DNA of 40,563 bases from a virus. The notes beneath the pieces were generated by a model. That model saw nothing but the letters and a program-made list of their open reading frames with translations, made no database searches and was not told the origin of the DNA. The stretch lies in IMG/VR virus record IMGVR_UViG_3300011442_000007; one strand, 5' to 3'. Both the position numbers and the translations under genes were made by a program. Positions 6,814 through 40,563 of the stretch are shown here, in pieces; the stretch's first letter is position 1, and each line of letters opens with the position of its first letter.

Positions 6814-8607
6814 ATGGCTACCCTGCCAACCGTAATCACCGACCTGACAGCAACCCCCGGGCCGAACTACCCACAGGGGTCGGATACGGTGTTCCCATCC
6901 CTCGATAATCTGCTGAGGGAGTACGGGGCCTACATCAAGCAGAACTACGACGACCTGGCGACGAAGACTGAGATTTCGGACCTAGCCGACACAGGAACTG
7001 CTACCCACGGTGATTTTCTTGTTGGCAGAAAGCGCACCTTCACCAGCGCCGTTGCCTCCACCTGGCACGCCTGGGCCGAACTCCAGCCTATCGATCTAGT
7101 CGCTGATTGCGGTGTCGTCGCCGACGGCTCCACGAACAACACAACGGCGATCAACGTCGCCCTATCAGCAGCATCTGCACTCGGTGGGGCGTTGCTCATC
7201 CTGCCAGTGGGGACCGTGAACTACGCAACCACCCTGGCATGGCCTGCAAATACGCACCTGATCGGGCAGGGGGATACGTCGGTGCTTCGGTACACCGGCT
7301 CATCGAACGCGATCAGCTCGGTCGATGTGTTCCCGACCGATGCGAGCATCAGCTTTCGAAACTTCAAGCTAACCACCACCACCAGTTCGCCATCGACTGG
7401 TCCGGGTGTCGATGGCATCGTGCTGAACAACGCGGTCCGGGTGTTGATCGACTGCCAGATTCGCGGGTTTGGGAATGCGGGTGTGAACCTCGCCTCGACC
7501 ACGGCAAAGGCCAATATCGACGTGACCTTCGGGCCCGGAGCGAACATCCACGAGAACGTGTATGGAGTGATGGCAACCGGAGCCAATGTAGGAGCGAATT
7601 CGATCAAGTTCCTAGGTCCGAGAATTCGAGCAAACTCGACCTACAACATCTACAGCACGCTCGACATTCGGGCGTGGACGTTCCTGGGGGGCACTTACGA
7701 AGCCGGTGGTATCTACCTGAATCAGCCCATCGGCCTTGCGATCATCGGGGCCTACTTCGAGATGGGCGGGGCGAGTATCTGCGTGGAACTTGCAAATGCT
7801 CAAGATGCCACCGGGGTAACCATCGAGGGGTGCCACTTCGCGCAGACCAGCTTGGGGACAGGAACGGGTATCAAACTCGGAACCTCCGCGTTCGTCCGGG
7901 GCGTGAACATCTCAGGCAATACCTTCATCGGATGGGGAACTGGTATCGACCCAGGCGCTGTGATCGGTGGGTGCATCGGTCCGAACGCGTACAGCAGCGT
8001 GACCACGCAGATTGGGATTCCTGGCTCCCTGTGTACTGGGCTCATGCTCAACGAGACAGCGAACTCTGCGCTCTATGGAGGAGGACTCGCTCAGTATGCG
8101 CACGACGGCTCATCGTGGGTCGCCCCATCTCCGTACCGATACACCACCGTCCCGATTGGCTCTGTGGCCTATGGGTCGATGGGCAACGACACAACGACAG
8201 CAGCGGGGACGATCTACTTCTGCGAGGTTCACTTCACGGCGCCGATGACGTTGACAGGAGCCGGGATTCTCACGGGTTCAGTGGCGAATAACAACAACTG
8301 GATATTTGCCCTGTACGACTTCAAGGGGACGCTGCTGGCGAACAGCGCCCTCGCAGGAGCGAAAGCCCCAGCGACGAACGACCTTCAACAGCTTGCGTTC
8401 ACGGCGACCTACTCTGCCCAGCCCGGCAAGTATTGGATTGCGATCCAGAACGCCGGGGCGACGGATAGATTCCGCGCGGTTGCTGCGAGTACATTCGCGG
8501 ACGTGCGGACCAAGTCTCAGGCGGGAGCGTTCGGCACGATCCCTTCGACCTTCACGATCCCGACGACTTTCACCGCCAACGTCGGGCCGATTGCCTACGT
8601 GTACTAG
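6814..8607 (+). CDS. Tailspike/tail fibre 2 with a right-handed beta-helix (pectate-lyase-like) depolymerase domain
   Basis: The N-terminus TLPTVITDLTATPGPNYPQGSDTVFPSLDNLLREY repeats the anchor motif of 5299..6051. The segment DCGVVADGSTNNTTAINVALSAASALGGALLILPVGT...THLIGQG matches the pectate_lyase_3-type tailspike signature. Confidence 0.7.
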   Translation: MATLPTVITDLTATPGPNYPQGSDTVFPSLDNLLREYGAYIKQNYDDLATKTEISDLADTGTATHGDFLVGRKRTFTSAVASTWHAWAELQPIDLVADCGVVADGSTNNTTAINVALSAASALGGALLILPVGTVNYATTLAWPANTHLIGQGDTSVLRYTGSSNAISSVDVFPTDASISFRNFKLTTTTSSPSTGPGVDGIVLNNAVRVLIDCQIRGFGNAGVNLASTTAKANIDVTFGPGANIHENVYGVMATGANVGANSIKFLGPRIRANSTYNIYSTLDIRAWTFLGGTYEAGGIYLNQPIGLAIIGAYFEMGGASICVELANAQDATGVTIEGCHFAQTSLGTGTGIKLGTSAFVRGVNISGNTFIGWGTGIDPGAVIGGCIGPNAYSSVTTQIGIPGSLCTGLMLNETANSALYGGGLAQYAHDGSSWVAPSPYRYTTVPIGSVAYGSMGNDTTTAAGTIYFCEVHFTAPMTLTGAGILTGSVANNNNWIFALYDFKGTLLANSALAGAKAPATNDLQQLAFTATYSAQPGKYWIAIQNAGATDRFRAVAASTFADVRTKSQAGAFGTIPSTFTIPTTFTANVGPIAYVY

Positions 8608-16002: not shown

Positions 16003-16350
16003 TCAGAACTCCTGTGCACCAAGTGCCTTAGCGATCCGCACGGCGCTTTCGCCATCGGTTGCCCACTGACCCACACGGGTGACCAGATCAACGATCGCCT
16101 CGTCCTCGGTCCTGCCCCAGCCGTGGCGGCCCACATCCTCGTCATCGCCCTCGAACAGCGCGCGCCAGTCATGGTCGCGCACGGGGATCGGGGGGTATTC
16201 GTGGATCGTGACGAGCTTTTGGCCTCGACGCTCGGTCAAATTGCCCATGTAGTCGTCAAAAACACCGTCTCGCTCGTGTGTCATGATTCCCTTTCTGAAC
16301 TGCGCGTCAATGTTGGGGTTGTCTGCGATGGATTGGAGCAGGGGGTTCAT
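16003..16350 (-). CDS. Hypothetical protein (115 aa)
   Basis: ORF track. ATGA coupling with the pentapeptide-repeat gene. Confidence 0.5.
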   Translation of the reverse strand: MNPLLQSIADNPNIDAQFRKGIMTHERDGVFDDYMGNLTERRGQKLVTIHEYPPIPVRDHDWRALFEGDDEDVGRHGWGRTEDEAIVDLVTRVGQWATDGESAVRIAKALGAQEF

Positions 16351-17225
16351 TTCGACGCCGCACGTTCCGCGTCCCGCTTCGCGTGCTCGGCAATTTCGCT
16401 GACGTATTTGCGATCAGTCAGCCACGACAGCACCTCGTCGGTGCCGCGATAGAACATCTTGGCGGCGATGGGAGCGGTCACAACCCCGGCAAGGACCGGC
16501 TCCATATTACGCACCTTCGGATCGGTGGAACAAACTTGCAACCAGCCAGCGAGGCAGTGCGTCGTTTCGCACAGCATTTCCTCGGCGCAGGTGCGGTTCC
16601 TCCATTGCTCATCGACGTGCCAGTGGTCCATTTCGAGCCTGGCCTTGTTGTCGAGAATGATTTCGCGCACGCGGTCGAGGTTCGCGATTGACTGCTCTGT
16701 GGTAGCTGTGCCGGCATCGCTCAGGTTGGCATCGCTCAGGTTGGCATAGCTCAGGTTGGCATCGCTCAGGTTTGCATAGCGCAGGTTGGCATCGCTCAGG
16801 TTGGCATAGCTCAGGTTGGCATAGCGCAGGTTGGCATCGCGCAGGTTGGCACCGCGCAGGTTGGCATCGCTCAGGTTGGCACCGCGCAGGTTTGCATCGC
16901 TCAGGTTGGCACCGCGCAGGTTTGCATAGTGCAGGTCGGCATCGCGCAGGTTTGCATCGCTCAGGTTGGCACCGCGCAGGTTTGCATAGTGCAGGTCGGC
17001 ATCGCGCAGGTTTGCATCGCTCAGGTTGGCATCGCGCAGGTTGGCATCGCGCAGGTTGGCACCGCGCAGGTTGGCATCGCTCAGGTTGGCATAGCTCAGG
17101 TTGGCACGTTTCGCTGTCGCTTGCTGCAGCGCATAACGAGTCCGTAGACCGCTCGCAACATCATTCGGCACGGCGCACTCAAACAGCACGGCGCCAGTGA
17201 ATCGGTGTTTGATCTGGTGAAGCAT
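16347..17225 (-). CDS. Pentapeptide-repeat protein (26 consecutive A[N/D]L[S/R/H]x units) with a Cys/Trp-containing C-terminal domain
   Basis: Translation ANLSYANLSDANLRGANLRDANLRD... GGAGA RBS 5 nt upstream of the ATG. The N-terminal IKHRFTGAVLFE cap is typical of this class. Confidence 0.85.
   Translation of the reverse strand: MLHQIKHRFTGAVLFECAVPNDVASGLRTRYALQQATAKRANLSYANLSDANLRGANLRDANLRDANLSDANLRDADLHYANLRGANLSDANLRDADLHYANLRGANLSDANLRGANLSDANLRGANLRDANLRYANLSYANLSDANLRYANLSDANLSYANLSDANLSDAGTATTEQSIANLDRVREIILDNKARLEMDHWHVDEQWRNRTCAEEMLCETTHCLAGWLQVCSTDPKVRNMEPVLAGVVTAPIAAKMFYRGTDEVLSWLTDRKYVSEIAEHAKRDAERAASK
16716..17105. repeat. 15-bp-period tandem array (26 units) encoding the pentapeptide repeats; contains a 60-bp unit duplicated at 59/60 identity (16921..16980 and 16981..17040)
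   Basis: Read directly: reiteration of ggcatcgctcaggtt and its variants. The sequence lines at 16921 and 16981 differ at one base. Confidence 0.9.
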
Positions 17226-19296: not shown

Positions 19297-20672
19297 CATA
19301 CGATTCATTCGTCGCCCGCAAGTTGTCGATTGTCTCGCCGAGCGGCCTGCAGGGATTGGTGCAGATGCCGGATTCCATGTTCCCGCATCAGGCCGCGCTC
19401 ACTCGCTGGGCACTCAAGCGTGGGCGTGCCGCGATCTTCGCTGATACCGGGCTCGGTAAGACCCGCATCGAACTTGTCTGGGGTCGCGCAGTAGCGAAGC
19501 ACACGCAGAGGCCGGTGCTGATCCTGGCGCCGCTCGCGGTGGCGGCGCAGACTGCTCTAGAGGGCGAGCGCATCGGTATCCCGGTGACGGTGTGTCGTGA
19601 CGGTGCAGACGTTCGGCCAGGCGTCAACATCACGAACTACGATCGCCTGCATCGATTCGACTGCTCGGTGTTCGGCGGCATCGCTCCCGATGAATCGTCG
19701 ATCATCAAGCACCACGATGCCAAGACGTTCGCCACCCTGACGCGGGAATTCAGGGATACCCCGTTCAAACTCCCATGCACCGCCACGCCGGCACCGAACG
19801 ACTGGACCGAGCTAGGCACGCACGCCGAGTTTCTTGGCATCTGCACGCGCCAGGAAATGCTCGCCGAGTACTTCACCCACGACGGGGGTGACACGAGCGT
19901 CTGGCGGCTTAAGGGCCATGCGCGTGACGTGTTCTGGCGCTGGGTCTGTTCGTGGGGTGCCCTGATTCGTCGGCCGTCTGACCTAGGATTCGATGACACG
20001 GCATACGCGCTGCCGCCACTGCTGCTGCACGAGCACCTGGTCGAATCAGAGACAAGCACGAACGGCATGCTCTTTGCGATGGAGGCGCAGACCTTGAGTG
20101 AGCGCCGTGATGCGCGCCACTCATCGCTCGAGGAACGGGTGGCCGAATGCTCGCGTATCGTCAATGCCGAAGCCGAGCCATGGGTTGTCTGGTGCGACCT
20201 CAACGCAGAAGGCGATGCGCTGACCAAAGCCATCAAAGGTGCGGTGCAGATTGCCGGCGCCGACGACACTGACACCAAAGAGGAACGCCTGCAGGCATTC
20301 GCAGCCGGCAAGTTCCGGGTGTTGGTCAGTAAGCCGTCGATCTGCGGGTGGGGTCTGAACTGGCAGCACTCTGCGCGCATGGCGTTCGTTGGTGTCACGG
20401 ACTCATACGAAGCCTACTACCAAGCGGTGCGCAGGTGCTGGCGCTTCGGTCAAAAGCGGCCTGTGCATGTGCATATCTTCGCCAGCAAGACCGAGGGGGC
20501 AGTGGTTGCGAACCTCAAGCGTAAAGAGCGCGACGCGCAGCAGATGGCCGAGAGTCTGAGCGCTGAAACGCACGATGCTGTGATGGCAGAAGTCACCGGA
20601 CTGACTCGGCAAACCAATCCGTACAACCCGGCGCAACCCATTGCCGTTCCGTCATTCCTGAGGGTCGCATGA
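19293..20672 (+). CDS. SNF2/DEAD-like superfamily 2 helicase
   Basis: Motif I ADTGLGKT, motif II PDESS, motif VI-like QAVRRCWRFGQ. ATGA coupling. Confidence 0.8.
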   Translation: MTYDSFVARKLSIVSPSGLQGLVQMPDSMFPHQAALTRWALKRGRAAIFADTGLGKTRIELVWGRAVAKHTQRPVLILAPLAVAAQTALEGERIGIPVTVCRDGADVRPGVNITNYDRLHRFDCSVFGGIAPDESSIIKHHDAKTFATLTREFRDTPFKLPCTATPAPNDWTELGTHAEFLGICTRQEMLAEYFTHDGGDTSVWRLKGHARDVFWRWVCSWGALIRRPSDLGFDDTAYALPPLLLHEHLVESETSTNGMLFAMEAQTLSERRDARHSSLEERVAECSRIVNAEAEPWVVWCDLNAEGDALTKAIKGAVQIAGADDTDTKEERLQAFAAGKFRVLVSKPSICGWGLNWQHSARMAFVGVTDSYEAYYQAVRRCWRFGQKRPVHVHIFASKTEGAVVANLKRKERDAQQMAESLSAETHDAVMAEVTGLTRQTNPYNPAQPIAVPSFLRVA

Positions 20673-21562
20673 ACTGCCTCGATCAAGTCGTCACCGACAG
20701 ATATGCCGCATACCACGGCGATTGCGTGGAAGTGCTCAAGGGCCTGCCTGCCGAGTCGATCGGCTACAGCATTTTCTCCCCGCCATTCGCCAGCCTCTAT
20801 ACCTACTCGAACTCGCCCCGAGACATGGGCAACGTCAGGAACGATGCCGAGTTCTTCGAACACTTCGACTACCTCATCGCTGAACTGCGCCGGGTGATGA
20901 AGCCGGGCCGGAACGTGTCGTTCCACTGCATGGACATCCCGAGCAGCAAGGAGCGTGACGGCGTGATCGGGTTAAAGGACTTCCCGGGGGATCTGCTGCG
21001 GGCATTCCAACGGCACGGTTTCATCTTCCACGCGAAGGCCACGATTTGGAAAGACCCAGTGACTGCGATGCAGCGCACCAAAGCTCTAGGATTGCTGCAC
21101 AAGAGCGTGCGGGAGAACTCCGCCATGTGCAGGATGAGCATCCCGGACTACCTCATCACGATGAGGGCGCCGGGTGAATCGGAGCGGGTCACGCACGGCG
21201 CCGAGTACCCGGTGGACCTGTGGCAGAAGGTCGCAAGCCCGATCTGGATGGACGTGAACCCGAGCGACACGCTGCAATACCGCTCCGCAAGGGAACACGA
21301 CGACGAACGACACATCGCACCGCTGCAGCTTGAAGTGATCCGCCGTGGGATCATGCTCTGGACGAACCCTGACGATATCGTGCTCAGCCCGTTCATGGGC
21401 ATCGGCTCTGAGGGCTACGTCGCAATCGAGATGGATCGCAAGTTCGTCGGCGTGGAACTCAAGGCTAGCTATTTTCAGCAGTCAGTTGCGAATTTGGCTG
21501 GTGCTGTGCAGCAATCAAAAGGGCTTTTCTTCGATCATGCCTCGGCTGTAGTGGGCAGCTGA
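20669..21562 (+). CDS. DNA methyltransferase (N6-adenine/N4-cytosine, beta-class motif order)
   Basis: The catalytic SPPF motif lies near the N-terminus and the SAM-binding SPFMGIGSEG near the C-terminus (pfam N6_N4_Mtase type). ATGA coupled to the helicase. Confidence 0.8.
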   Translation: MNCLDQVVTDRYAAYHGDCVEVLKGLPAESIGYSIFSPPFASLYTYSNSPRDMGNVRNDAEFFEHFDYLIAELRRVMKPGRNVSFHCMDIPSSKERDGVIGLKDFPGDLLRAFQRHGFIFHAKATIWKDPVTAMQRTKALGLLHKSVRENSAMCRMSIPDYLITMRAPGESERVTHGAEYPVDLWQKVASPIWMDVNPSDTLQYRSAREHDDERHIAPLQLEVIRRGIMLWTNPDDIVLSPFMGIGSEGYVAIEMDRKFVGVELKASYFQQSVANLAGAVQQSKGLFFDHASAVVGS

Positions 21563-33943: not shown

Positions 33944-34912
33944 ATGGCTCAAGTATCTGGTACCACCGACACCATTGACCTTGTCGGTGTGGCCGAAGAC
34001 GTTGAAGACGCAATCTTCAACATCAGTCCCACGGAGACTCCGTTTCTGACGATGGCGAAGCGCAAAGACGCCTCGAACATCACTCATCAGTGGCAAACCG
34101 ACGCATTAGCCGCTGCGGCCGCGAACCGCACGATTGAAGGCGACGACGCTACATTCGTGACCGCGACCCCGACGGTGATGCTGCAAAACCGCTTGCAGAT
34201 CGCTCGCAAGACGCTGATCGTGTCCGACACCGCGGATGTGGTACGGAAGTACGGCCGAGCCCGTGAAACGGCCCGCCTGCTGGTGAAGTACGGCAAGGAA
34301 CTGAAGCGCGACATGGAATTCGCCCTGGTCACAAACCAGGCAAGTTCCATTGGCGGCTCTTCGACTGCCCGTTCATCGGCGGGGATGGAATCGATGATCG
34401 CCGGGAATCGGATCATCGCCTCTGGCAACACGACCGGGACGACACCCGGTTACGGTGGCGCGGACTGGACTACTCCAACGGATGGAACTGCGACCGTCAC
34501 AGTGACGGAGGCGCTGCTGAAATCCGGGATTCAGGCCGCATGGGATGACGGTGGCGATCCCTCCGTCATCATGATCCCGTATGCCCAGAAGGGACAGATC
34601 GCCACGTTCACGGGTGCGGCGAAGTACGCAGGCGCCTACACCAACAACGGGCGGGCACAAGCCGCCCTGATTGGTGCGGTGGATGTGTACATCTCGGACG
34701 CTGGGGACCACAAGTTGATGCTCAATCGGTACGTGCGTACGCGGACCATTCTCGGGATCGACCCCGAGTATTGGTCGGTCGCATTCCTCCGAGGCATTCG
34801 TTCCGTCCCGCTGGCGAAGACCGGCGACGCCACAAAGAGCATGCTGCTTGCCGAGTTCTGCCTGGTTGGCGACAACCCGGACAGTTCGTTCAAGCTTCAG
34901 GATATGGCCTGA
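33944..34912 (+). CDS. Major capsid protein (HK97-fold, DUF5309/SU10-like family)
   Basis: The N-terminal signature EDVEDAIFNISPTETPFLTMAKRKDASNITHQWQTDALAAA...EGDDATF. GAGG RBS. Followed by a terminator hairpin. Confidence 0.85.
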   Translation: MAQVSGTTDTIDLVGVAEDVEDAIFNISPTETPFLTMAKRKDASNITHQWQTDALAAAAANRTIEGDDATFVTATPTVMLQNRLQIARKTLIVSDTADVVRKYGRARETARLLVKYGKELKRDMEFALVTNQASSIGGSSTARSSAGMESMIAGNRIIASGNTTGTTPGYGGADWTTPTDGTATVTVTEALLKSGIQAAWDDGGDPSVIMIPYAQKGQIATFTGAAKYAGAYTNNGRAQAALIGAVDVYISDAGDHKLMLNRYVRTRTILGIDPEYWSVAFLRGIRSVPLAKTGDATKSMLLAEFCLVGDNPDSSFKLQDMA

Positions 34913-34917
34913 TCTTT

Positions 34918-34935
34918 GGCCCTTCGGGGCCTTTT
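34918..34935 (+). terminator. Weak rho-independent terminator (GGCCC-TTCG-GGGCC followed by TTTTCTC)
   Basis: 5-bp GC stem, TTCG tetraloop and a T-run, 6 nt after the capsid stop. Confidence 0.5.
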
Positions 34936-34938
34936 CTC

Positions 34939-35268
34939 ATGGACCTGATCGACAAACGATTCACCAAAGGTGGAATGCTGGAAAAGGCATCCATCGAGGA
35001 TGGAAATCTTCACCTTCAGACGTTTCAGGACATTGAGCCGAACGTCGAAATGGTGAAGGCCATGAGAAAAGACTCCGACTACACCGCGCGAGGAATCAAA
35101 CGAGAGTTCGCGCATTCCCTCCATATCTCAGAGGTTCACGTTGTCGCCCTCCTCAATGCAGGGGTGAACGTCTACACAGCGCCAACGAAGGACATCGTGG
35201 CGGGGCTTGTGAGACTTGATCTGCTAGAAGCGTGTCGGGTGACAGATAAGAAACTCTGGAGAGGCTGA
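34939..35268 (+). CDS. Hypothetical protein (109 aa)
   Basis: ATG at 34939 within ORF 34771..35268, just after the terminator. Confidence 0.5.
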   Translation: MDLIDKRFTKGGMLEKASIEDGNLHLQTFQDIEPNVEMVKAMRKDSDYTARGIKREFAHSLHISEVHVVALLNAGVNVYTAPTKDIVAGLVRLDLLEACRVTDKKLWRG

Positions 35269-36675
35269 GTGAGCCTCAAAACAGCCTACGCGCTGTCGCA
35301 GGAAGATCCCGACGCAGCGGCGAAGATCGCCAACGACATCCTGCGTGACGACACGGAGAACGCGGGTGCCCTGTACCTCCTAGGGACCGTCCACGCCAAA
35401 GCAGAACGGTTCGGAAACGCCCTGCCGATCTTCGAGAAGGTGGTCCGGTTAGTCCCTCGCAGACACGAAGCGTGGAACTACCTTGGGATGTGCCAGCAGG
35501 AGTGTCATGAGTTCGATAAGTCGAACCAGGCTTTTCGCAAGGCCATCGATTGGGCAGATAAGGCCAAATCACCACCCGAGACGACAGCGAACTATCTAGC
35601 TAACCTGGCTAGTTCGTACTCTGGACAGGGGAACTACTCAGAGGCCATCCGGTGGTGCAAAAGGGCTCTTGAGAAGGATCCAGAACACTCTGGAGCATTG
35701 ACTACCCTAGGCTTCGCTCAGATCGCTACGGGTGACTGGCAAAACGGCTGGAAGGGATATGAAAACTGCCTCGGAGGCCGATTCAGAAAGATCGTCCAGC
35801 TAGGAGACGAGCCCAAGTGGGATGGCTCCTATGTCGAGAACCTGTTCGTGTACGGAGAGCAGGGCCTCGGTGACGAACTGATGTACGCATCGTGTCTGGA
35901 AGATATCAAAGCCGGGCACATCACGCTGGAATGTGATCCGAGGTTAGAGGGGTTGTTCAAACGCTCATTTCCACATATCGAAGTCCATGGAACACGCAGA
36001 AAAGACCCCTACTGGGCCGAAGGCAAGACTTTCGACGCTGGATGTGCTATCGGCAGCCTGCCGGCTCTGTTCAGACCCACTCGTGAATCCTGCCCTAAAA
36101 AGCCGTATCTCATCGCTGATGCAGAGCGGCGACTACAGTGGCGTGCGTTGTTTGATTCTTGGGGCAAACCAGTCATCGGGATCGGATGGACCGGAGGCCG
36201 AGCAGCAACCCAGGCCAAAGCACGAAAGGTCGGTCTAGAAGCGTTTCGTCCGATCATCGAAAGCGTTGACGCAGTTTTCGTCAGCGTCCAATACATCGAC
36301 CCTCGGGAAGAAATCGACACCACTGGACTTCCGGTAAGGCATCTCCCTCGCGCGGTGCAAAGTCCGGACTACGACGACACGGCTGCTTTCGTTGCGGAGC
36401 TTGACTATCTGATTGCTCCACCGACGACAATCCATCACATGGCGGGAGCGATGGGCAAAAGCAGCTTGATCCTTGTCCCAAGTCAACCCATGTGGGACTG
36501 CGCCTACTCAGAATCGTGGCCGTGGTACCAGGAACAGAAATTCTTCCGACAGAAGAAAGATGAGACCTGGGCCGATTGTCTAAGGAGATTGAATGAACTT
36601 CGTATTCATTGGCTACGACCCGAGGCAGCCTCTCGCGTACAACGTGCTTCAGCACTCGATTGTGAGACATGCTAG
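35269..36675 (+). CDS. TPR-repeat protein fused to a GT9-like (GT-B) glycosyltransferase domain
   Basis: The N-terminal 150 aa show TPR-like helical pairs (AGALYLLGTVHAKAERFGNALPIFEKVV, EAWNYLGMCQQE, ANLASSYSGQGNYSEAIRWCKRALEKDPEH). The C-terminus has GEQGLGDELMYASCL and DDTAAFVAELDYLIAPPTTIHHMAGAMGKSSLILVP, which match heptosyltransferase-family motifs. Confidence 0.7.
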   Translation: MSLKTAYALSQEDPDAAAKIANDILRDDTENAGALYLLGTVHAKAERFGNALPIFEKVVRLVPRRHEAWNYLGMCQQECHEFDKSNQAFRKAIDWADKAKSPPETTANYLANLASSYSGQGNYSEAIRWCKRALEKDPEHSGALTTLGFAQIATGDWQNGWKGYENCLGGRFRKIVQLGDEPKWDGSYVENLFVYGEQGLGDELMYASCLEDIKAGHITLECDPRLEGLFKRSFPHIEVHGTRRKDPYWAEGKTFDAGCAIGSLPALFRPTRESCPKKPYLIADAERRLQWRALFDSWGKPVIGIGWTGGRAATQAKARKVGLEAFRPIIESVDAVFVSVQYIDPREEIDTTGLPVRHLPRAVQSPDYDDTAAFVAELDYLIAPPTTIHHMAGAMGKSSLILVPSQPMWDCAYSESWPWYQEQKFFRQKKDETWADCLRRLNELRIHWLRPEAASRVQRASALDCETC

Positions 36676-37246
36676 CGAGCCAGTAGCCATCTGCCCGCTG
36701 ATCCTCAAGCAGCTTCCGATCAAACGCAAAGGCTTGACGGAGTTCACATACTCTCGCTTCTTGGTCCCGTACATCTGCGGGTTCAAAGGCAGGGCTTTGT
36801 TCCTCGATGCCGATATGGTCGTTACTGGAGACGTGTCGGAACTCTTCAACAGCGAGGAGATGAGCGCTGTATCAGTCATGCAGGAACAGCCGAAATTCGA
36901 GTGGGCCAGCATGATGATGTTCAACTGCTCTGCTTGTTCCAGACTGACTCCTGAGTTCATCGACAATGAAGAAAATCAGCTATTCGACCTTAAGTGGGCT
37001 CCATATGTCGGGAAGTTAGACCCATCGTGGAATCACTGCGTTGGCTATCAAGAACCGAAGGACGCGAAGCTGTATCACTACACCCAAGGTCTCCCGTGTT
37101 TCCCTGAGACTCAGGGGCTCCCAGAAGATGCGGTGTGGAACCGCGAATCCGACCTGATGAACTCCACCGTGTCGTGGAAGGAATTGATGGGTAGATCGGT
37201 TCACCGGGAGCCTGTGTTGAGAAGGTTACTTTCCAAGTACCAATGA
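36593..37246 (+). CDS. GT8-like (GT-A, DxD) glycosyltransferase
   Basis: AAGGAG lies 5 nt upstream of the ATG. RALFLDADMVVTGDVSELF is the GT8-type DxD motif. The gene starts 83 nt inside the preceding ORF. Confidence 0.6.
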   Translation: MNFVFIGYDPRQPLAYNVLQHSIVRHASEPVAICPLILKQLPIKRKGLTEFTYSRFLVPYICGFKGRALFLDADMVVTGDVSELFNSEEMSAVSVMQEQPKFEWASMMMFNCSACSRLTPEFIDNEENQLFDLKWAPYVGKLDPSWNHCVGYQEPKDAKLYHYTQGLPCFPETQGLPEDAVWNRESDLMNSTVSWKELMGRSVHREPVLRRLLSKYQ

Positions 37247-38076
37247 TCGGTGTGACATGGATGTGGACCCATCCAAAGCTGGCTTCGGCCCGCTTGCGGA
37301 ACAACATCCCTTCCCAGGTTCTGAAACTGCGCGGCGTTGTGAAAGACGGCACCGATCTAATCATCGCGTCTAAGCACAACTGGGACGTTTCGACCGTCCG
37401 AAAGCGCTTCAAGCGTATGATCTTCGATGTCTGCGACGATCACTTCTCAGACTCAAGAAGGGAGCACTATCTCCATGCCTGTGAGGTCGCAGACCAGATC
37501 ACTTGCAACTCCGAGGTAATGCGTGAAATCATCGAGCGCGAGACCCACCGTCGAGCAACTGTCATCGACGATCCGTACGAGGATGCAGAGCTTGCGCCGG
37601 ACGGAACTGGCTCTGGCGTCCTGTGGTTTGGACACTCCCTCAATCTCCCGGACCTTGAACGAGTTGCTCCCTCTATACGTCACCCTCTTACGGTTGTCGC
37701 CAGCCACAACTACACACCGGAGCACCTAGATGCCTGTCTCAAAGCGTGCCGCGTTGTCATCTTGCCTACGGGCAAATCGCAAGCAAAGAGCGCGAACCGT
37801 GCAGTTAGGTCAATCAGATACGGCAAGTATCCAATATGCGGACACCTACCCGCGTACGGTGAACTCGGATTGGGAAACGACGATTTGGGACTCGCACTTG
37901 ACCGGGCCTATGAGAGTACCGACTCGGATTTGGTGGCGCGTGTAAGAGCACTTCAAGACTTGGTGAGAGTGCGGTTCTCGCCTGACCTGGTATCGGATGC
38001 TTGGGAGAAAGTAATTTGCGGCTCAATCTCGGGTGCGGGACGCGAAAGCTTGAAGGCTTTACTAACTGCGACCTGA
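37243..38076 (+). CDS. Putative glycosyltransferase (GT-B-like; weak)
   Basis: ATGA coupling. The C-terminal half VLWFGHSLNLPDL...ILPTGKSQAKSANRAVRSIRYGKYPIC resembles GT-B nucleotide-sugar-binding halves. Context also supports the call. Confidence 0.4.
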   Translation: MIGVTWMWTHPKLASARLRNNIPSQVLKLRGVVKDGTDLIIASKHNWDVSTVRKRFKRMIFDVCDDHFSDSRREHYLHACEVADQITCNSEVMREIIERETHRRATVIDDPYEDAELAPDGTGSGVLWFGHSLNLPDLERVAPSIRHPLTVVASHNYTPEHLDACLKACRVVILPTGKSQAKSANRAVRSIRYGKYPICGHLPAYGELGLGNDDLGLALDRAYESTDSDLVARVRALQDLVRVRFSPDLVSDAWEKVICGSISGAGRESLKALLTAT

Positions 38077-38498
38077 CCGATGCCGATGTGATCTGCGATG
38101 TATTCCAGAGACTCCCGTTCGGCAACGAGACAGCAGACGAGATTCACGCTTACCACGTCTTCGAGCACTGCTACCGATACGACTGCGAGGCGATCCTCAA
38201 AGACTGGGTGCGAGTCCTTAAGTACGGCGGGAAACTTGTCTTAGAACTCCCGTGCCTCGACAGCATCATCCAGATATTCAACTGGCATATTGAGCGAGAG
38301 AAGCCAATCCCGGTGAACCTGACGATGTGGGGCTTGTTCGGCGATCCATCGTGGAAACGGCCGGAGATGACGCATCATTGGTGCTATTCCCAAGCCGAAC
38401 TTGGTGACTTGATGACGAAAGCTGGCTTGGTGGTCACGTTCCACAAAGCACAGACCCATCAACCGATCAGAGACATGCGGGGCGAGGGCATCAAGTGA
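38001..38498 (+). CDS. Class I SAM-dependent methyltransferase
   Basis: LNLGCGTRKLEGFTNCD (motif I), HVFEH, and VLKYGGKLVLELP (post-II/III). The TTG start is uncertain and overlaps the upstream gene by up to 76 nt. Confidence 0.65.
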   Translation: MGESNLRLNLGCGTRKLEGFTNCDLTDADVICDVFQRLPFGNETADEIHAYHVFEHCYRYDCEAILKDWVRVLKYGGKLVLELPCLDSIIQIFNWHIEREKPIPVNLTMWGLFGDPSWKRPEMTHHWCYSQAELGDLMTKAGLVVTFHKAQTHQPIRDMRGEGIK

Positions 38499-38998
38499 AC
38501 AACTCGGTTCTAACCTTCGCCAAAAAACATAGGGGGAAGATCAGTGGAAACGTCCTCGAAGTTGGAAGCCAGATTGTTAATGGCACTGTGCGTGACGTTC
38601 TCGCTATCAGCGTTGGGTGCGATATGGTGGACGGTCCCGGAGTGGACCAAGTTGTCGATTCTTCTGGCCTGCTGGTTCAGTTTGGGCCTGACTCTTGGGA
38701 CTGCGTTGTTTCTTGTGACGCACTGGAACACATGGCGGCATGGAAAGACGCCATAGAGAACATGTGGGGCGTCCTGAAGCCAGAAGGGCTCCTGTTCCTG
38801 ACCCTGGCCAACCCAAGGAAGGGCTATCACGGCTACCCTTCGGATTACTGGAGGTGGCCCATGGAGCGGTTCAAGCTGCTTTTCGGGCAGAACGAGATAC
38901 TGGACACTTTCTTTGAGGGCCCATCAATGGGAGTGCTTGTTAGGAAGGGCTCACATCCGTTAGACTTGAGCATCAAGCCAGACCCCGTGAGGCGATAG
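38495..38998 (+). CDS. Second class I SAM-dependent methyltransferase
   Basis: VLEVGSQ (motif I), VVSCDALEHM, and VLKPEGLLFLTL. GTGA coupling. Confidence 0.6.
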   Translation: MNNSVLTFAKKHRGKISGNVLEVGSQIVNGTVRDVLAISVGCDMVDGPGVDQVVDSSGLLVQFGPDSWDCVVSCDALEHMAAWKDAIENMWGVLKPEGLLFLTLANPRKGYHGYPSDYWRWPMERFKLLFGQNEILDTFFEGPSMGVLVRKGSHPLDLSIKPDPVRR

Positions 38999-39595
38999 AT
39001 GGCTCTGAATACCTATGCGGACCTGAAAACGTCGATCCTGGATTGGTCCAACAAAACCAATCTGACAGCGATGGCGCCGGATTTCGTCAGGCTCGCGGAG
39101 TCGAAGATTCGCAAGAAACTGCGCACCCGTGACCAACTCACTGCGCTGCCGATCACGCTCACGGACGACTTAGGAAGCCTCCCGACAGACATGCTGGAGG
39201 TTCGGTCGGTGGTGGTTGATGGAAACGTGCTTTCCTACGTTCCCGAGGAAGTCTACGACCAGCTGGCCGAGTTCGCTACCGACCCCATCAACTACACCTT
39301 CTCGGGCTCACAGATCAAAGTTGCCGGCGGCGGGGACTCGACTGCGAGACTTGACTACTATCACGCCTACACCGCTTTATCGGCCGCCAGCGACACGAAT
39401 TGGGTGCTGACCAATGCCCCCGAGGTCTACCTGTACGGGAGCCTTGTAGAGGCGTTTGACTACCTCCGCGATGGAGTGGAGCGCGACAGGTACATGCAGA
39501 AGTTCGAGCAGACCGTGGCCGAACTGAACCTGACCGAGAAAGTGTCCCTCTCCGCTGGACCGATGAGAGTGCGACCGGACACCTTTACCCCATGA
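38999..39595 (+). CDS. Putative head-to-tail adaptor / tail accessory protein (198 aa)
   Basis: Position and size are comparable with the podovirus gp4/gp11 class. ATGA coupled to the downstream 483-aa ORF. The functional call rests on context only. Confidence 0.4.
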   Translation: MALNTYADLKTSILDWSNKTNLTAMAPDFVRLAESKIRKKLRTRDQLTALPITLTDDLGSLPTDMLEVRSVVVDGNVLSYVPEEVYDQLAEFATDPINYTFSGSQIKVAGGGDSTARLDYYHAYTALSAASDTNWVLTNAPEVYLYGSLVEAFDYLRDGVERDRYMQKFEQTVAELNLTEKVSLSAGPMRVRPDTFTP

Positions 39596-40563
39596 TCCCA
39601 TTCATAGGATTTGTTCCCGACGTCGATGAACTGACGCCAGGCGCGATCCTGGATGCCAGCCAGATCATCCCAACGCAGAAGGGGATACAGGCATGCCCAT
39701 CCACGGTAACAGCAGGCCCATCTGCCTTACCTGCGGAATGCCGGGGCGCCGCTCTGCTACGGAATCTGTCTGGCGTGAACCGGCTTATTGCGGGGACCAG
39801 TACGAATTTATTCGAAGCTGGGTCCACGGCATGGGGCACAGTCTCCGCTTCGTCCGCTGGTTACAGTCTCGGAACGGACGACCGATGGAGCTTCTGCCAG
39901 TTCGGCAACTCAGCAATCGCGGCGACGATCAGCGAGAAAATACAACGTAGCACCAGCGGCAACTTCGCGACGATCACTGCCGCACCCAAAGCCCAGATCG
40001 TCGAATCACTCAAGGGGTTCGTCCTTGCGCTACATACCAACGAAACTACCTTCGGTGATAGTACAGATCGATGGTTTTCCTGCGCTCAGTATGATGAGAC
40101 TGACTGGACCCCAAGTGTCGCAACTCAGTGCGCTACCGGCCGCCTCGTTGAAGGCGGCGGTCCTATCACTGCTGGCAGGAAGCTCGGCGACGATCTCATC
40201 GTCTACAAACGCCGAGCCATGTTCATCGGCCGATACGCCGGTCCTCCCTCAGTCTGGGACTTCGTCCAAGTCACAACGGAAATCGGGTGCGTTGGGCAAG
40301 AGGCGGTCATAAACATTGGATACGCCCACATCTTCGCTGCTGAGGACAACATCTATCTATTTGATGGGGTCCGACCACAGTCAATCGCTGATGGGAAAGT
40401 TCGAGAGTGGTTCACCAGCAACCTCAACCCGGTCTATAACTACCGGACAAAAGCCTTCTGGGACAAGCGAAGAAACCTCGCGTGGATCTTCTTCGTCTCC
40501 ACCGGAGGATCGTCAATCTGCGACTCCGGCCTGGTTTACCACACGCTCACAGGTCGATGGGGA
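39592..40563 (+). CDS. 5' portion of a wrap-around ORF (about 483 aa in total with 124..603); putative tail hub/nozzle-type protein
   Basis: The ATG at 39592 overlaps the upstream TGA. Hand translation shows no stop before the window end. It is absent from the ORF track because it is unterminated. It is in phase with frame 1 at the window start. Confidence 0.6.
   Translation, partial: MIPFIGFVPDVDELTPGAILDASQIIPTQKGIQACPSTVTAGPSALPAECRGAALLRNLSGVNRLIAGTSTNLFEAGSTAWGTVSASSAGYSLGTDDRWSFCQFGNSAIAATISEKIQRSTSGNFATITAAPKAQIVESLKGFVLALHTNETTFGDSTDRWFSCAQYDETDWTPSVATQCATGRLVEGGGPITAGRKLGDDLIVYKRRAMFIGRYAGPPSVWDFVQVTTEIGCVGQEAVINIGYAHIFAAEDNIYLFDGVRPQSIADGKVREWFTSNLNPVYNYRTKAFWDKRRNLAWIFFVSTGGSSICDSGLVYHTLTGRWG
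40441..40563. repeat. Exact direct repeat of 1..123
   Basis: Identical 123 nt at both window ends. Confidence 0.95.

Follow-up and report, generated by a model that had tools for sequence, protein, structure and literature searches.

The gene at positions 35269..36675 (+ strand) of the window, by which we mean the whole 40,563-nucleotide stretch of viral DNA analysed here (IMG/VR record IMGVR_UViG_3300011442_000007), encodes a fusion of a TPR domain with a GT-B glycosyltransferase domain, which appears to be a divergent relative of family GT9. The gene opens a cassette of glycosyltransferase and methyltransferase genes inserted in the head module of the phage, and from this position we infer, at roughly even chances, that the enzyme (hereafter TPR-GT) glycosylates a virion protein of the phage, probably its capsid protein. 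Literature searches found no described TPR-GT9 system in either phages or bacteria.

The open reading frame lies exactly where the original prediction had placed it, on the + strand and with a length of 468 aa. It starts with a GTG codon at 35269, which directly follows the stop codon of the upstream frame and is preceded, a few bases upstream, by a GGAGAGG sequence, and the alignment shows that this start position is common to the homologues. The sequence shows neither an evident signal peptide nor a hydrophobic stretch, and the last ~25 residues form a non-conserved tail with low model confidence. The anticipated TPR plus GT-B architecture was borne out by the Pfam TPR matches together with the two-lobed fold of the AlphaFold2 (AF2) model. 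More than 1000 homologues were found (E <= 0.001), and nearly all of the 120 matches listed have the same architecture, whereas in some more distant phages the GT9-like domain lacks TPR and is encoded elsewhere than beside the capsid gene.

The TPR domain, delimited by Pfam, PDB sequence matches and the AF2 model, spans residues 1-167 (35269..35769, + strand). The best Pfam matches were TPR_2 (E 3.4e-17, 61.5 bits for a cut-off of 27) and TPR_1 (E 1.5e-15, 56.7 bits), and a total of 12 TPR-type models scored above their cut-offs, all of them inside residues ~8-165, while the PDB sequence matches corresponded to consensus TPR proteins and to the TPR parts of OGT and SPY. The full-length AF2 model (pLDDT 92.9, pTM 0.88) contains ten helices across residues 3-167, equivalent to about 4.5 TPR hairpins, so that the helical hairpins read from the letters are indeed predicted to fold as TPRs. 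This domain has diverged more than the rest of the protein: among 45 phage homologues its mean identity is 46% vs 64% for the GT domain, and columns conserved in at least 90% of the sequences amount to 11% vs 40%. Moreover, phmmer comparisons with the best cellular loci gave values of about 1e-31 for the TPR domain and of 1e-103 to 1e-116 for the GT domain. A quicker divergence would be expected for a module tracking a diverging acceptor, and the TPR domain is the proposed acceptor-recognition module.

The catalytic domain occupies residues 168-445 (35770..36603, + strand), as deduced from the AF2 model, hhalign, the PF01075 matches of relatives and BFVD, and it is modelled as two alpha/beta lobes (residues 189-300 and 302-443), with an N-terminal lobe reduced to four strands and about 100 aa. 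Direct searches did not recover the heptosyltransferase-family assignment that had been suggested for it. Outside the TPR region, no Pfam model matched TPR-GT, and neither NCBIfam, nor phmmer against PDB, nor a 7-sequence profile against PDB gave any match, while the C-terminal 298 aa showed no similarity to PF01075 even at E <= 10. Profile comparisons, on the other hand, supported the assignment, since a family profile aligned with a WaaC/WaaF/WaaQ/WaaU profile by hhalign with a probability of 96.4% (E 1.2e-9), through a 42-column core in the C-lobe signature, whereas all the GT4, GT30 and GT41 controls remained below 1%. Similarly, PF01075 was matched by 18 of 51 cellular relatives and other families by none, a profile match to WaaF (1PSW) was marginal (E 0.034), and the domain-only Foldseek matches in BFVD carry names such as GT family 9, RfaF and Aah/TibC. 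An AlphaFold prediction of this domain by itself, from 7 sequences, reached only pLDDT 48 and was set aside. Altogether, the catalytic domain is indirectly confirmed as a divergent GT9 relative.

The glycosyltransferase motifs quoted in the original prediction are real and nearly invariant in the 45 homologues. The first one, E197-Q-G-L-G-D202 (35857..35874, + strand; alignments and hhalign), is a loop after the first strand whose EQGxGD pattern is invariant in the 45 phage proteins, and of 433 domains from the family at large, 96% or more keep each of its residues E, Q, G, G and D. A relaxed hhalign alignment places the GD of this loop, with high posterior confidence, onto G12-D13 of WaaC, where Asp13 is the catalytic base. 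The second one, D-Y-D-D-T-A-A-x5-D-x2-I-x-P-P-T-T-I-H-H-M-A-G-A-M-G (36367..36456, + strand; hhalign and alignment), is a C-lobe signature in which D369/D370, D379, T386, H390, the following Ala, G393 and G396 are conserved in the 45 homologues, and which, judging from the alignments, is the counterpart of the GT9 donor-site motif 'DTGxxHLAAALG'. The search for catalytic residues thus gave a divided answer: D202, the counterpart of Asp13, is invariant, but the position of WaaC Asp261, the donor-site Asp, is Pro385 in TPR-GT and either His or Pro across the phage clade. Across the wider family this position holds Asp in 56% of the domains, and therefore is not a family requirement. Because of the Pro at this position, an ADP-heptose donor should not be assumed, and the reduced N-lobe together with the lost Asp261 counterpart argue against assuming either that donor or an LPS-core acceptor.

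WaaC, WaaF and WaaQ (GT9, PF01075) are the only characterised enzymes with detectable sequence similarity to TPR-GT. They share with it the Gly-rich loop and Asp after strand 1 and the donor-site motif (D-T-x-x-x-H-L-A-A-A-L-G), and the likeness can be trusted only over the first strand-loop-helix and that motif, the N-lobe being otherwise unalignable. In contrast to the phage protein, which fails PF01075, the Waa enzymes lack a TPR domain, have an N-lobe of about 160 aa instead of about 100 aa, and act on Kdo2-lipid A at the membrane; Asp261 of WaaC is a further difference, as the phage clade does not conserve it. Another family, the BAHTs (TibC, Aah), also lacks a TPR domain, and acceptor recognition by its members depends on a dodecameric assembly that has an iron-binding finger. 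The annotation of one distant phage homologue reads 'tibC'. According to Lu et al. 2014 (cited in PMC7591256), TibC and Aah demonstrate that cytoplasmic O-glycosylation of proteins is within the reach of a GT9-type fold.

The analogy with OGT and FlmG that had been drawn for this protein holds for the domain architecture but not for catalytic homology. OGT and SPY (CAZy GT41) are soluble enzymes that act on proteins and have an N-terminal TPR superhelix and a C-terminal GT-B domain, the domain order also seen in TPR-GT; they were the best PDB matches of the whole model in Foldseek (E 1e-11 to 1e-9), in a search dominated by TPR-containing GT41 entries, but as rigid bodies they resemble it weakly (TM 0.33, rmsd 13-15 A). 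Their catalytic domains, however, show no sequence relationship with that of the phage enzyme: PF13844 matched neither TPR-GT nor any of the 51 relatives, and hhalign gave 0.2% for the GT41 domain from Methylococcus, a bona fide member that reaches 1e-54 with PF13844. As the catalytic domain is GT9-like and not GT41-like, the similarity to OGT is architectural. The phage protein also differs in having no intervening domain, about 4.5 TPRs vs 11-13, and a much smaller N-lobe. In the case of Caulobacter FlmG, it is the TPR domain, and not the GT-B domain, that binds flagellin (PMC7591256), whereas the GT-B domain sets the donor specificity in a cytoplasmic enzyme encoded with genes of the structure that it modifies (PMC7591256; bioRxiv 10.1101/2022.03.25.485807). 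The likeness with the phage protein is again one of TPR and GT-B modules, in architecture only; FlmG has 596 aa and transfers pseudaminic or legionaminic acid, and no genes for nonulosonic-acid synthesis were found among the large ORFs of the window.

The cassette is a tight, overlapping string of + strand genes in the order TPR-GT9-like, GT8-like, a cryptic GT-B-like ORF277 and two SAM methyltransferases. The GT8-like GT-A glycosyltransferase (36593..37246, + strand, 217 aa, with the DxD motif LDADMV), whose gene shares its first 83 nt with the end of the TPR-GT gene, scores just over the cut-off of Pfam PF01501 (25.0 bits vs 24.3). ORF277 (37243..38076, + strand) gave no direct Pfam match, and its reading as a third glycosyltransferase-like protein, of the GT-B C-lobe type, comes from its relatives, which match PF13524 in 8 of 38 and PF13692 in 5 of 38 cases. 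They are followed by methyltransferase 1 (MT1; 38001..38498, + strand, 165 aa, Methyltransf_11 E 1.8e-7) and methyltransferase 2 (38495..38998, + strand, 167 aa, Methyltransf_11 E 6.2e-7 and phrog_32762 E 4.9e-13).

This string is inserted just downstream of an SU10-type major capsid gene (33944..34912, + strand; Pfam SU10_MCP, E 2.3e-81), between orf110 (34939..35268, + strand; iterated HMM search), a small core head-module gene that forms the upstream boundary of the cassette, and an SU10-type adaptor gene (38999..39595, + strand; Pfam SU10_adaptor, E 3.4e-30), which forms the downstream one. Of 53 IMG/VR loci in which a related capsid gene and an adaptor gene are both present, 28 contain TPR-GT, and in each of the 33 loci where TPR-GT was seen, the capsid gene precedes it on the same strand. 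The gene order of the window recurs in two other loci (L002 and L003) and is kept in phage MW202512, whose TPR-GT is only 28% identical. In many of the loci, TPR-GT is the sole sizeable inserted gene, which fits an initiating, acceptor-specific enzyme.

The product of orf110, for which no family match was found, was considered as a partner or acceptor specific to the cassette, and the candidate was rejected: the gene occurs in 32 of 33 cassette-bearing loci, but also in 25 of 25 cassette-lacking ones, always between the capsid and adaptor genes, although it could still be an acceptor. The capsid protein has a variable loop at residues ~131-186 in which Ser and Thr make up 34% of the residues, vs 17% overall. 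When capsid proteins were compared for features that follow the cassette, Ser/Thr enrichment of this loop in cassette-bearing phages was the only one to emerge; it is modest and confounded by phylogeny, since phages with and without the cassette form separate clades, and it does not count as evidence. Six nt past the capsid stop codon there is a terminator-like hairpin (GGCCC-TTCG-GGGCC followed by TTTTCTC; 34918..34931, + strand), which could reduce the expression of the downstream enzyme genes relative to that of the capsid protein. The region contains no more of these sites in total than chance would give, and only the position of this one is suggestive.

Relatives of the cassette are found in bacteria. 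Homologues of the TPR-GT9-like, GT8-like, ORF277-like and MT1-like proteins cluster beside type IV major pilin genes in Methylococcus and in many Betaproteobacteria. In the isolate genome of Methylococcus capsulatus Texas, an ORF277-like/MT1-like fusion, a GT8-like gene and two TPR-GT9-like genes (those beside pilin in this species are of the WP_010960786 family) precede, in that order, a canonical type IVa pilin gene, after which a TPR-GT41 gene comes on the other strand. Identities to this cluster are 40% for TPR-GT, 38% for the GT8-like protein (E 3e-44), 25% for ORF277 and 40% for MT1, with E values from 9e-19 to 1e-54. ORF277 aligns to residues 82-358 of the 535-aa Methylococcus fusion protein, the C-terminal half of which is MT1-like, and MT1 to its residues 363-531 (E 4e-39). 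Over 77 genome loci, a pilin gene lies at most 6 kb away in 31, and pilB occurs in 15; GT8-like homologues were found in 29 loci assigned to cells, although one of these, L017, is really a phage contig that had been mis-binned. Pilin models matched none of the scanned ORFs of the window, where the cassette adjoins the capsid gene instead. That four cassette components have homologues in pilin-adjacent clusters is our strongest evidence for a protein acceptor, and it is itself contextual. Type IV pilins are translocated by the Sec/SRP route, which fits poorly with their glycosylation in the cytoplasm. A similar arrangement has been described in Synechococcus elongatus, where a TPR-GT41 enzyme encoded beside pilA is needed for PilA glycosylation (PMC9306852). 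This predicted cytoplasmic Ogt (Synpcc7942_0051; PMC9306852) is a TPR-glycosyltransferase whose gene lies beside that of a polymerising surface subunit, and the pilin-adjacent TPR-GT9-like arrays mirror its adjacency to pilA; its catalytic domain, however, is GT41, whereas the phage enzyme has GT9-like relatives that are accompanied by GT8-like enzymes and methyltransferases.

The most plausible pathway would start with TPR-GT acting as a soluble cytoplasmic protein glycosyltransferase, whose N-terminal TPR domain would hold a structural protein of the phage. The likeliest acceptor would be the major capsid protein, whose gene ends about 350 nt upstream, and the surface loop rich in Ser and Thr might be the part involved. 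The GT9-like domain would then move a first sugar from a host nucleotide sugar, with Asp202 as the base, the GT8-like enzyme and ORF277 would extend the glycan, and the two SAM methyltransferases would methylate it, leaving the virion coated with a methylated oligosaccharide. The use of a protein as acceptor, its belonging to the virion, the donor sugar and the order of the enzymes are all points that we infer. In favour of this function are the TPR and GT-B architecture, the conserved catalytic domain, the fixed position in the head module and the homology to the pilin islands; against it, gene adjacency is circumstantial with regard to the acceptor, TPR domains may simply scaffold complexes or bind polysaccharide, the rigid-body similarity to OGT and SPY is weak, and the GT9-like domains of more distant phages have neither the TPR nor the place beside the capsid gene.

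Virus-encoded glycosyltransferases that decorate the major capsid protein occur in mycobacteriophages and chloroviruses, and the chlorovirus enzymes also methylate the sugars. These enzymes are not TPR fusions, are unrelated in sequence to the present ones as far as tested, and belong to other virus lineages with other hosts. The capsids of mycobacteriophages Che8 and Rita are reported to be glycosylated by phage-encoded enzymes (Freeman et al. 2023, as cited in PMC11256854). In their F1-cluster relative Maravista, putative glycosyltransferase genes map near the 3' end of the genome (PMC11256854), and not beside the capsid gene as they do here.

An acceptor such as LPS core, capsule or an undecaprenyl-linked glycan, lipid-linked or polysaccharide in nature, is unlikely, although several observations speak for it. 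In that case the cassette would remodel the host surface, or build a glycan for a separate transferase, with the TPR domain assembling the enzymes or binding the polymer, as the TPR of PgaA is reported to bind polysaccharide (cited in PMC12801897). The sole detectable characterised relatives of the catalytic domain are LPS heptosyltransferases, and some homologues are labelled by JGI as 'ADP-heptose:LPS heptosyltransferase'. Moreover, pilin glycosylation in Neisseria and Pseudomonas is described as proceeding through lipid-linked glycans and periplasmic oligosaccharyltransferases (PMC7591256), and the phage encodes a pectate-lyase-type tail protein, so that its host probably has a surface polysaccharide. 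However, the confident Waa likeness is confined to the two segments described above, and the acceptor-binding N-lobe is much reduced and otherwise unalignable. The cassette includes no oligosaccharyltransferase, flippase or membrane protein, the gene belongs to the late head module rather than to the early genes, and nearly all members of the family carry the TPR fusion.

The pilin-adjacent location of the cellular homologues would also suit a host protein as acceptor, either a type IV pilin, whose modification could block superinfection by pilus-dependent phages, or another host factor, and pilin glycosylation is reported to protect Pseudomonas from pilus-specific phages (bioRxiv 10.1101/150227). 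This is rather improbable, given that in every related phage containing it the cassette is flanked by head genes inside the late structural operon. The large ORFs of the window that were scanned include no integrase, and a lytic phage would gain little from modifying pili late in infection. Furthermore, the TPR domain stands much further from its cellular counterparts than the GT domain does from its own, which fits its retargeting to a different acceptor.

It is very doubtful that the GT domain is catalytically inactive and that the protein serves as a TPR scaffold or chaperone for head assembly. The loss of the Asp261 counterpart (Pro385; His or Pro in the clade) and the lack of a direct match to any glycosyltransferase model would agree with this, but the EQGxGD loop and about 40% of the GT columns are conserved, Asp occupies the Asp261 position in only 56% of the family at large, and the companion glycosyltransferases and methyltransferases make sense only if a glycan is built. 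Finally, hypermodification of the phage DNA, like T4 glucosylation and related systems, was rejected as scarcely credible in spite of an N6/N4 DNA methylase encoded in the genome, because no hydroxymethylase, TET/5mYOX-like or thymidylate-synthase-like gene, as base hydroxymethylation would call for, occurs among the large ORFs, the cellular homologues lie at pilin loci and not near replication or modification genes, and we know of no role for a TPR fusion in the known DNA glycosyltransferases. Phage GT-B enzymes that glycosylate DNA bases are reported elsewhere (bioRxiv 10.1101/2023.12.21.572611; PMC13326640).

Glycosylation of the capsid by TPR-GT would, if true, extend phage-encoded capsid glycosylation beyond actinophages. 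If the capsid is the target, many environmental podoviruses would wear a self-made sugar coat, which would affect adsorption, aggregation, grazing, immune recognition and the behaviour of the particles in water. To our knowledge, phage-encoded glycosylation of virions has been reported only for some mycobacteriophages, in which it alters the recognition of the phage by antibodies. More tentatively, and with less confidence than we place in the function proposed for the phage enzyme, TPR-GT9-like enzymes may constitute a very large unrecognised family of cytoplasmic protein glycosyltransferases that, together with GT8-like, GT-B and methyltransferase partners, place methylated glycans on the subunits of surface polymers, namely type IV pilins in Beta- and Gammaproteobacteria, a module that a widespread group of environmental podoviruses would have acquired and retargeted to their own capsid. 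The link with pilin loci offers a testable hypothesis for this huge uncharacterised family, which could also supply modular acceptor-binding and transferase parts for cytoplasmic glycoengineering, as pursued with FlmG. The name given by PGAP to its members is only 'tetratricopeptide repeat-containing glycosyltransferase family protein'. A representative search with the family recovered 36,164 clusters at 50% identity, and many of the 150 that scored best carry 2-6 tandem copies of the GT domain, with TPR repeats as well in the few that were scanned.

The data partly support the view that the head module of this phage encodes a protein glycosyltransferase that is guided by TPR repeats and has a GT9-like catalytic module. 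The open reading frame of the original prediction (35269-36675, + strand) proved exact in its coordinates and encodes 468 aa (here TPR-GT) from a GTG start, which abuts the stop codon of the preceding ORF, has a GGAGAGG sequence shortly 5′ and gives the first residue at which the alignment of 44 homologues begins. The TPR repeats claimed for its N-terminal part were borne out: 12 TPR-type Pfam models exceed their curated thresholds over residues ~8-165 (TPR_2, E 3.4e-17), a PDB sequence search retrieves consensus TPR proteins together with the TPR portions of OGT and SPINDLY, and an AlphaFold2 model built from 45 homologues (mean pLDDT 92.9, pTM 0.88) has ten helices at residues 3-167.

The same model contains two alpha/beta lobes at residues 189-443, the region for which heptosyltransferase-family motifs had been proposed. 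These could not be accepted at face value, since no glycosyltransferase model of Pfam (even at E <= 10) or NCBIfam matches the window protein, and a PDB sequence search gave no match outside the TPR region. Nevertheless, four indirect tests agree that the motifs are real, and the catalytic domain is a GT-B fold and a divergent GT9 relative. A profile of 553 copies of the domain matched a profile of the E. coli LPS heptosyltransferases WaaC, WaaF, WaaQ and WaaU with 96.4% probability (E 1.2e-9), as against <1% for GT4 (WaaG, WaaB), GT30 (WaaA) and a bona fide Methylococcus GT41 domain; under a relaxed alignment threshold the match to the Waa profile covers the whole domain, and G201-D202 then coincides, at high posterior confidence, with G12-D13 of WaaC, and Pro385 with its Asp261. 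Among 51 cellular relatives scanned singly, 18 matched the GT9 model PF01075 (best E 2.9e-8) and none any other family, while their profile gave a marginal match to WaaF (1PSW, E 0.034) in the donor-site motif region shared with GT9. In a viral structure library, the matches to the domain alone were named GT family 9, RfaF and Aah/TibC. The proposed OGT-type architecture holds for the union of TPR and GT-B modules but does not extend to the catalytic domain: the best PDB matches of the whole model are SPINDLY and OGT (E 1e-11 to 1e-9), with a TM of only 0.33 and an rmsd of 13-15 Å, so the likeness to GT41 is one of architecture.

The catalytic domain is clearly under strong constraint, with 40% of its columns conserved at >=90% and a mean identity of 64%, whereas the TPR domain shows 11% and 46%, respectively. 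The loop E197-Q-G-x-G-D202 is invariant throughout the phage clade, and in the wider family (433 domains) each of its five fixed residues is retained by at least 96%. Where WaaC has Asp261, TPR-GT has Pro and the phage clade His or Pro; no more than 56% of the wider family have Asp there, so the family does not require it, and ADP-heptose should not be assumed as the donor.

The ends of the window carry an identical 123-bp overlap (1-123 and 40441-40563), and it is therefore the entire genome of a phage, circular or terminally redundant, with a unit length of 40,440 bp. A search for tRNA genes found none. Its genes include a large terminase, SU10-type portal, scaffold, SU10-type major capsid protein, SU10-type adaptor, lysozyme, an N6/N4 DNA methylase (20669-21562) and a 597-aa tail protein (6814-8607) whose pectate-lyase-like domain suggests a surface polysaccharide receptor on the host. 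The closest kin of the capsid protein in the phage collection (33-39% identity) are environmental podoviruses and phages of Sinorhizobium, Pseudomonas, Methylophilales and Pelagibacter. Within a block of minus-strand genes lies a 292-aa pentapeptide-repeat protein (16347-17225, − strand; Pfam E 4.5e-56); such proteins are capable of DNA mimicry, and by analogy this one might be an anti-defence or anti-gyrase factor.

All genes around TPR-GT lie on the + strand. The major capsid gene (33944-34912) is followed, 6 nt past its stop codon, by a GC-rich hairpin with a T-run (34918-34931), which looks like a partial terminator that would hold the downstream enzyme genes below the level of the capsid protein. 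The small head gene orf110 (34939-35268) and TPR-GT come next, and then a GT8-like enzyme with a DxD motif (36593-37246), ORF277 (37243-38076), two SAM methyltransferases (38001-38498 and 38495-38998) and the adaptor (38999-39595), the cassette genes running head to tail with each touching or overlapping the next. The first 83 nt of the GT8-like gene (36593-36675) run over the C-terminal tail of TPR-GT, which is not conserved and is modelled with low confidence; in two relatives the overlap is 32 and 59 nt. These overlaps suggest translational coupling. ORF277 has no direct family match, but 8 of its 38 relatives match Glyco_trans_1_2 and 5 match Glyco_trans_1_4, so that this glycan-building cassette probably comprises three glycosyltransferases along with the two methyltransferases. 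The window ORFs scanned included none for nucleotide-sugar synthesis, and the donors would therefore be host nucleotide sugars. ORF277 and methyltransferase 1 (together 37243-38498) are separate genes in different frames with a 76-nt overlap; they are likewise separate in related phages, which makes a sequencing frameshift unlikely.

The C-terminal domain of TPR-GT has 1055 homologues (E <= 0.001) in a protein collection clustered at 90%, and nearly all of the 120 matches listed are TPR fusions of 430-480 aa, many on contigs of 40-47 kb. The gene order is repeated on two full-length contigs (L002 and L003). Cultured phages gave no close homologue: the phage collection's top match, from MW202512, is 28% identical, and its locus keeps the order, the capsid gene being followed by two small genes, the TPR protein, an endonuclease, an FkbM methyltransferase and a galT-like protein. 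More distant phages have the GT9-like domain without TPR and in other gene contexts. When 80 IMG/VR loci were fetched by capsid protein and scored for gene order, TPR-GT lay between capsid and adaptor in 28 of the 53 loci with both genes and was absent from the other 25; in five more it was present on a contig ending before the adaptor. In all 33 it lay 3′ of the capsid gene in the same orientation, and in many of them it was the sole sizeable insert, with the GT8-like gene ~7 kb upstream of the capsid. Since orf110 occurs in 32/33 cassette-bearing and 25/25 cassette-lacking loci, the cassette is an accessory element inserted between two core genes of the head module, with TPR-GT as its constant member.

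The family extends into cellular genomes. When 1.84 billion representatives were searched in full with HMMER, 36,164 clusters were obtained at E <= 0.001, and many of the best 150 (P0121-P0270), in a ranking by summed score that favours multi-copy proteins, are giants of 1000-3140 aa with 2-6 tandem GT9-like domains; the few of these scanned also have TPR repeats. A genome scan for relatives yielded 77 loci. The nine best (L005-L013, 43-60% identity) are short or phage-like contigs assigned, as was L017, to MAGs of unrelated phyla (Nanopelagicales, Nitrososphaerota, Saccharibacteria, Planctomycetaceae and others). Phage head genes (portal, capsid, scaffold, orf110 or adaptor) are present on most of the nine and on L017, so that these are mis-binned phage contigs. 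The remaining 68 (L014-L081) come mainly from Burkholderiales and other Betaproteobacteria, plus Methylococcus, whose member is named 'tetratricopeptide repeat-containing glycosyltransferase family protein' by PGAP. Clustering of the neighbouring ORFs and annotation of the commonest clusters revealed a recurrent layout: pilB, a GAF/HD gene, an FkbM-GT2 fusion, 1-5 TPR-GT9-like paralogues among methyltransferases (TylF-type and others) and a 228-aa protein, and finally 1-3 type IV major pilin genes. A pilin gene lies within the 6-kb flanks in 31/77 loci, and pilB in 15/77. In the isolate Methylococcus capsulatus Texas (L014:797-9472) the pilin, MKALQKGFTLIELMIVVAIIG..., is of the canonical type IVa class, and its gene is also flanked by a true TPR-GT41 gene and a GT2 gene, both on the opposite strand. 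Many Betaproteobacteria, and Methylococcus, seem to have a glycosylation island, so far undescribed, where their type IV pilins are encoded; our literature search found no paper on TPR-GT9-like proteins, whether of phages or of pilin loci.

These islands hold counterparts of four cassette components, TPR-GT among them, making it a kit common to the phage head module and bacterial pilin loci. The GT8-like enzyme is 38% identical to the island protein of 228-232 aa (E 3e-44) and has homologues in 29 loci of the cellular set, the mis-binned L017 among them. ORF277 aligns with residues 82-358 (25% identity, E 9e-19) and methyltransferase 1 with residues 363-531 (40% identity, E 4e-39) of a single 535-aa Methylococcus protein; as halves of one fused bacterial protein, they are functionally linked.

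On the best-supported reading, TPR-GT would be specific for the acceptor and would initiate a cytoplasmic pathway by which a structural protein of the phage, most likely the capsid protein whose gene lies just upstream, receives a methylated oligosaccharide. Architecture, head-module position and kinship with pilin-locus genes favour the protein-directed reading originally proposed, but its virion acceptor, drawn from architecture, conservation and gene context, stands at roughly an even chance. A lipid-linked or polysaccharide acceptor, in keeping with the relationship to the LPS heptosyltransferases, is unlikely: the N-lobe of TPR-GT has only four strands and, beyond the first strand-loop-helix, is unalignable with the acceptor-binding lobe of those enzymes, and the cellular relatives point to a protein, their apparent target being the subunit of a different polymer, the type IV pilus. 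The other main rival, a host protein such as pilin, is still more improbable. The pilin association of the relatives is contextual and mechanistically awkward for a cytoplasmic enzyme, though a Synechococcus TPR-GT41 Ogt encoded beside pilA and needed for PilA glycosylation (PMC9306852) demonstrates that it can occur.

For a virion protein as acceptor, the phage module sits at the equivalent place, beside the gene of a polymerising subunit. Caulobacter FlmG likewise joins TPR and GT-B modules; its TPR domain, and not its GT-B domain, binds flagellin (PMC7591256), and swapping the GT-B domain alters the donor sugar (PMC7591256; bioRxiv 10.1101/2022.03.25.485807). According to Freeman et al. 2023, as cited in PMC11256854, the capsid proteins of mycobacteriophages Che8 and Rita bear glycans and their F1-cluster relatives encode putative glycosyltransferases. 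In the capsid protein of this phage, a variable, indel-rich, Ser/Thr/Gly-rich loop at residues ~131-186 (34% S+T) is a candidate glycosylation site; it is somewhat richer in Ser/Thr in cassette-bearing phages, which form a clade separate from those lacking the cassette, so this enrichment is not independent evidence. In composition the loop resembles the C-terminal portion of the Methylococcus pilin, which is likewise rich in Ser, Thr and Gly.
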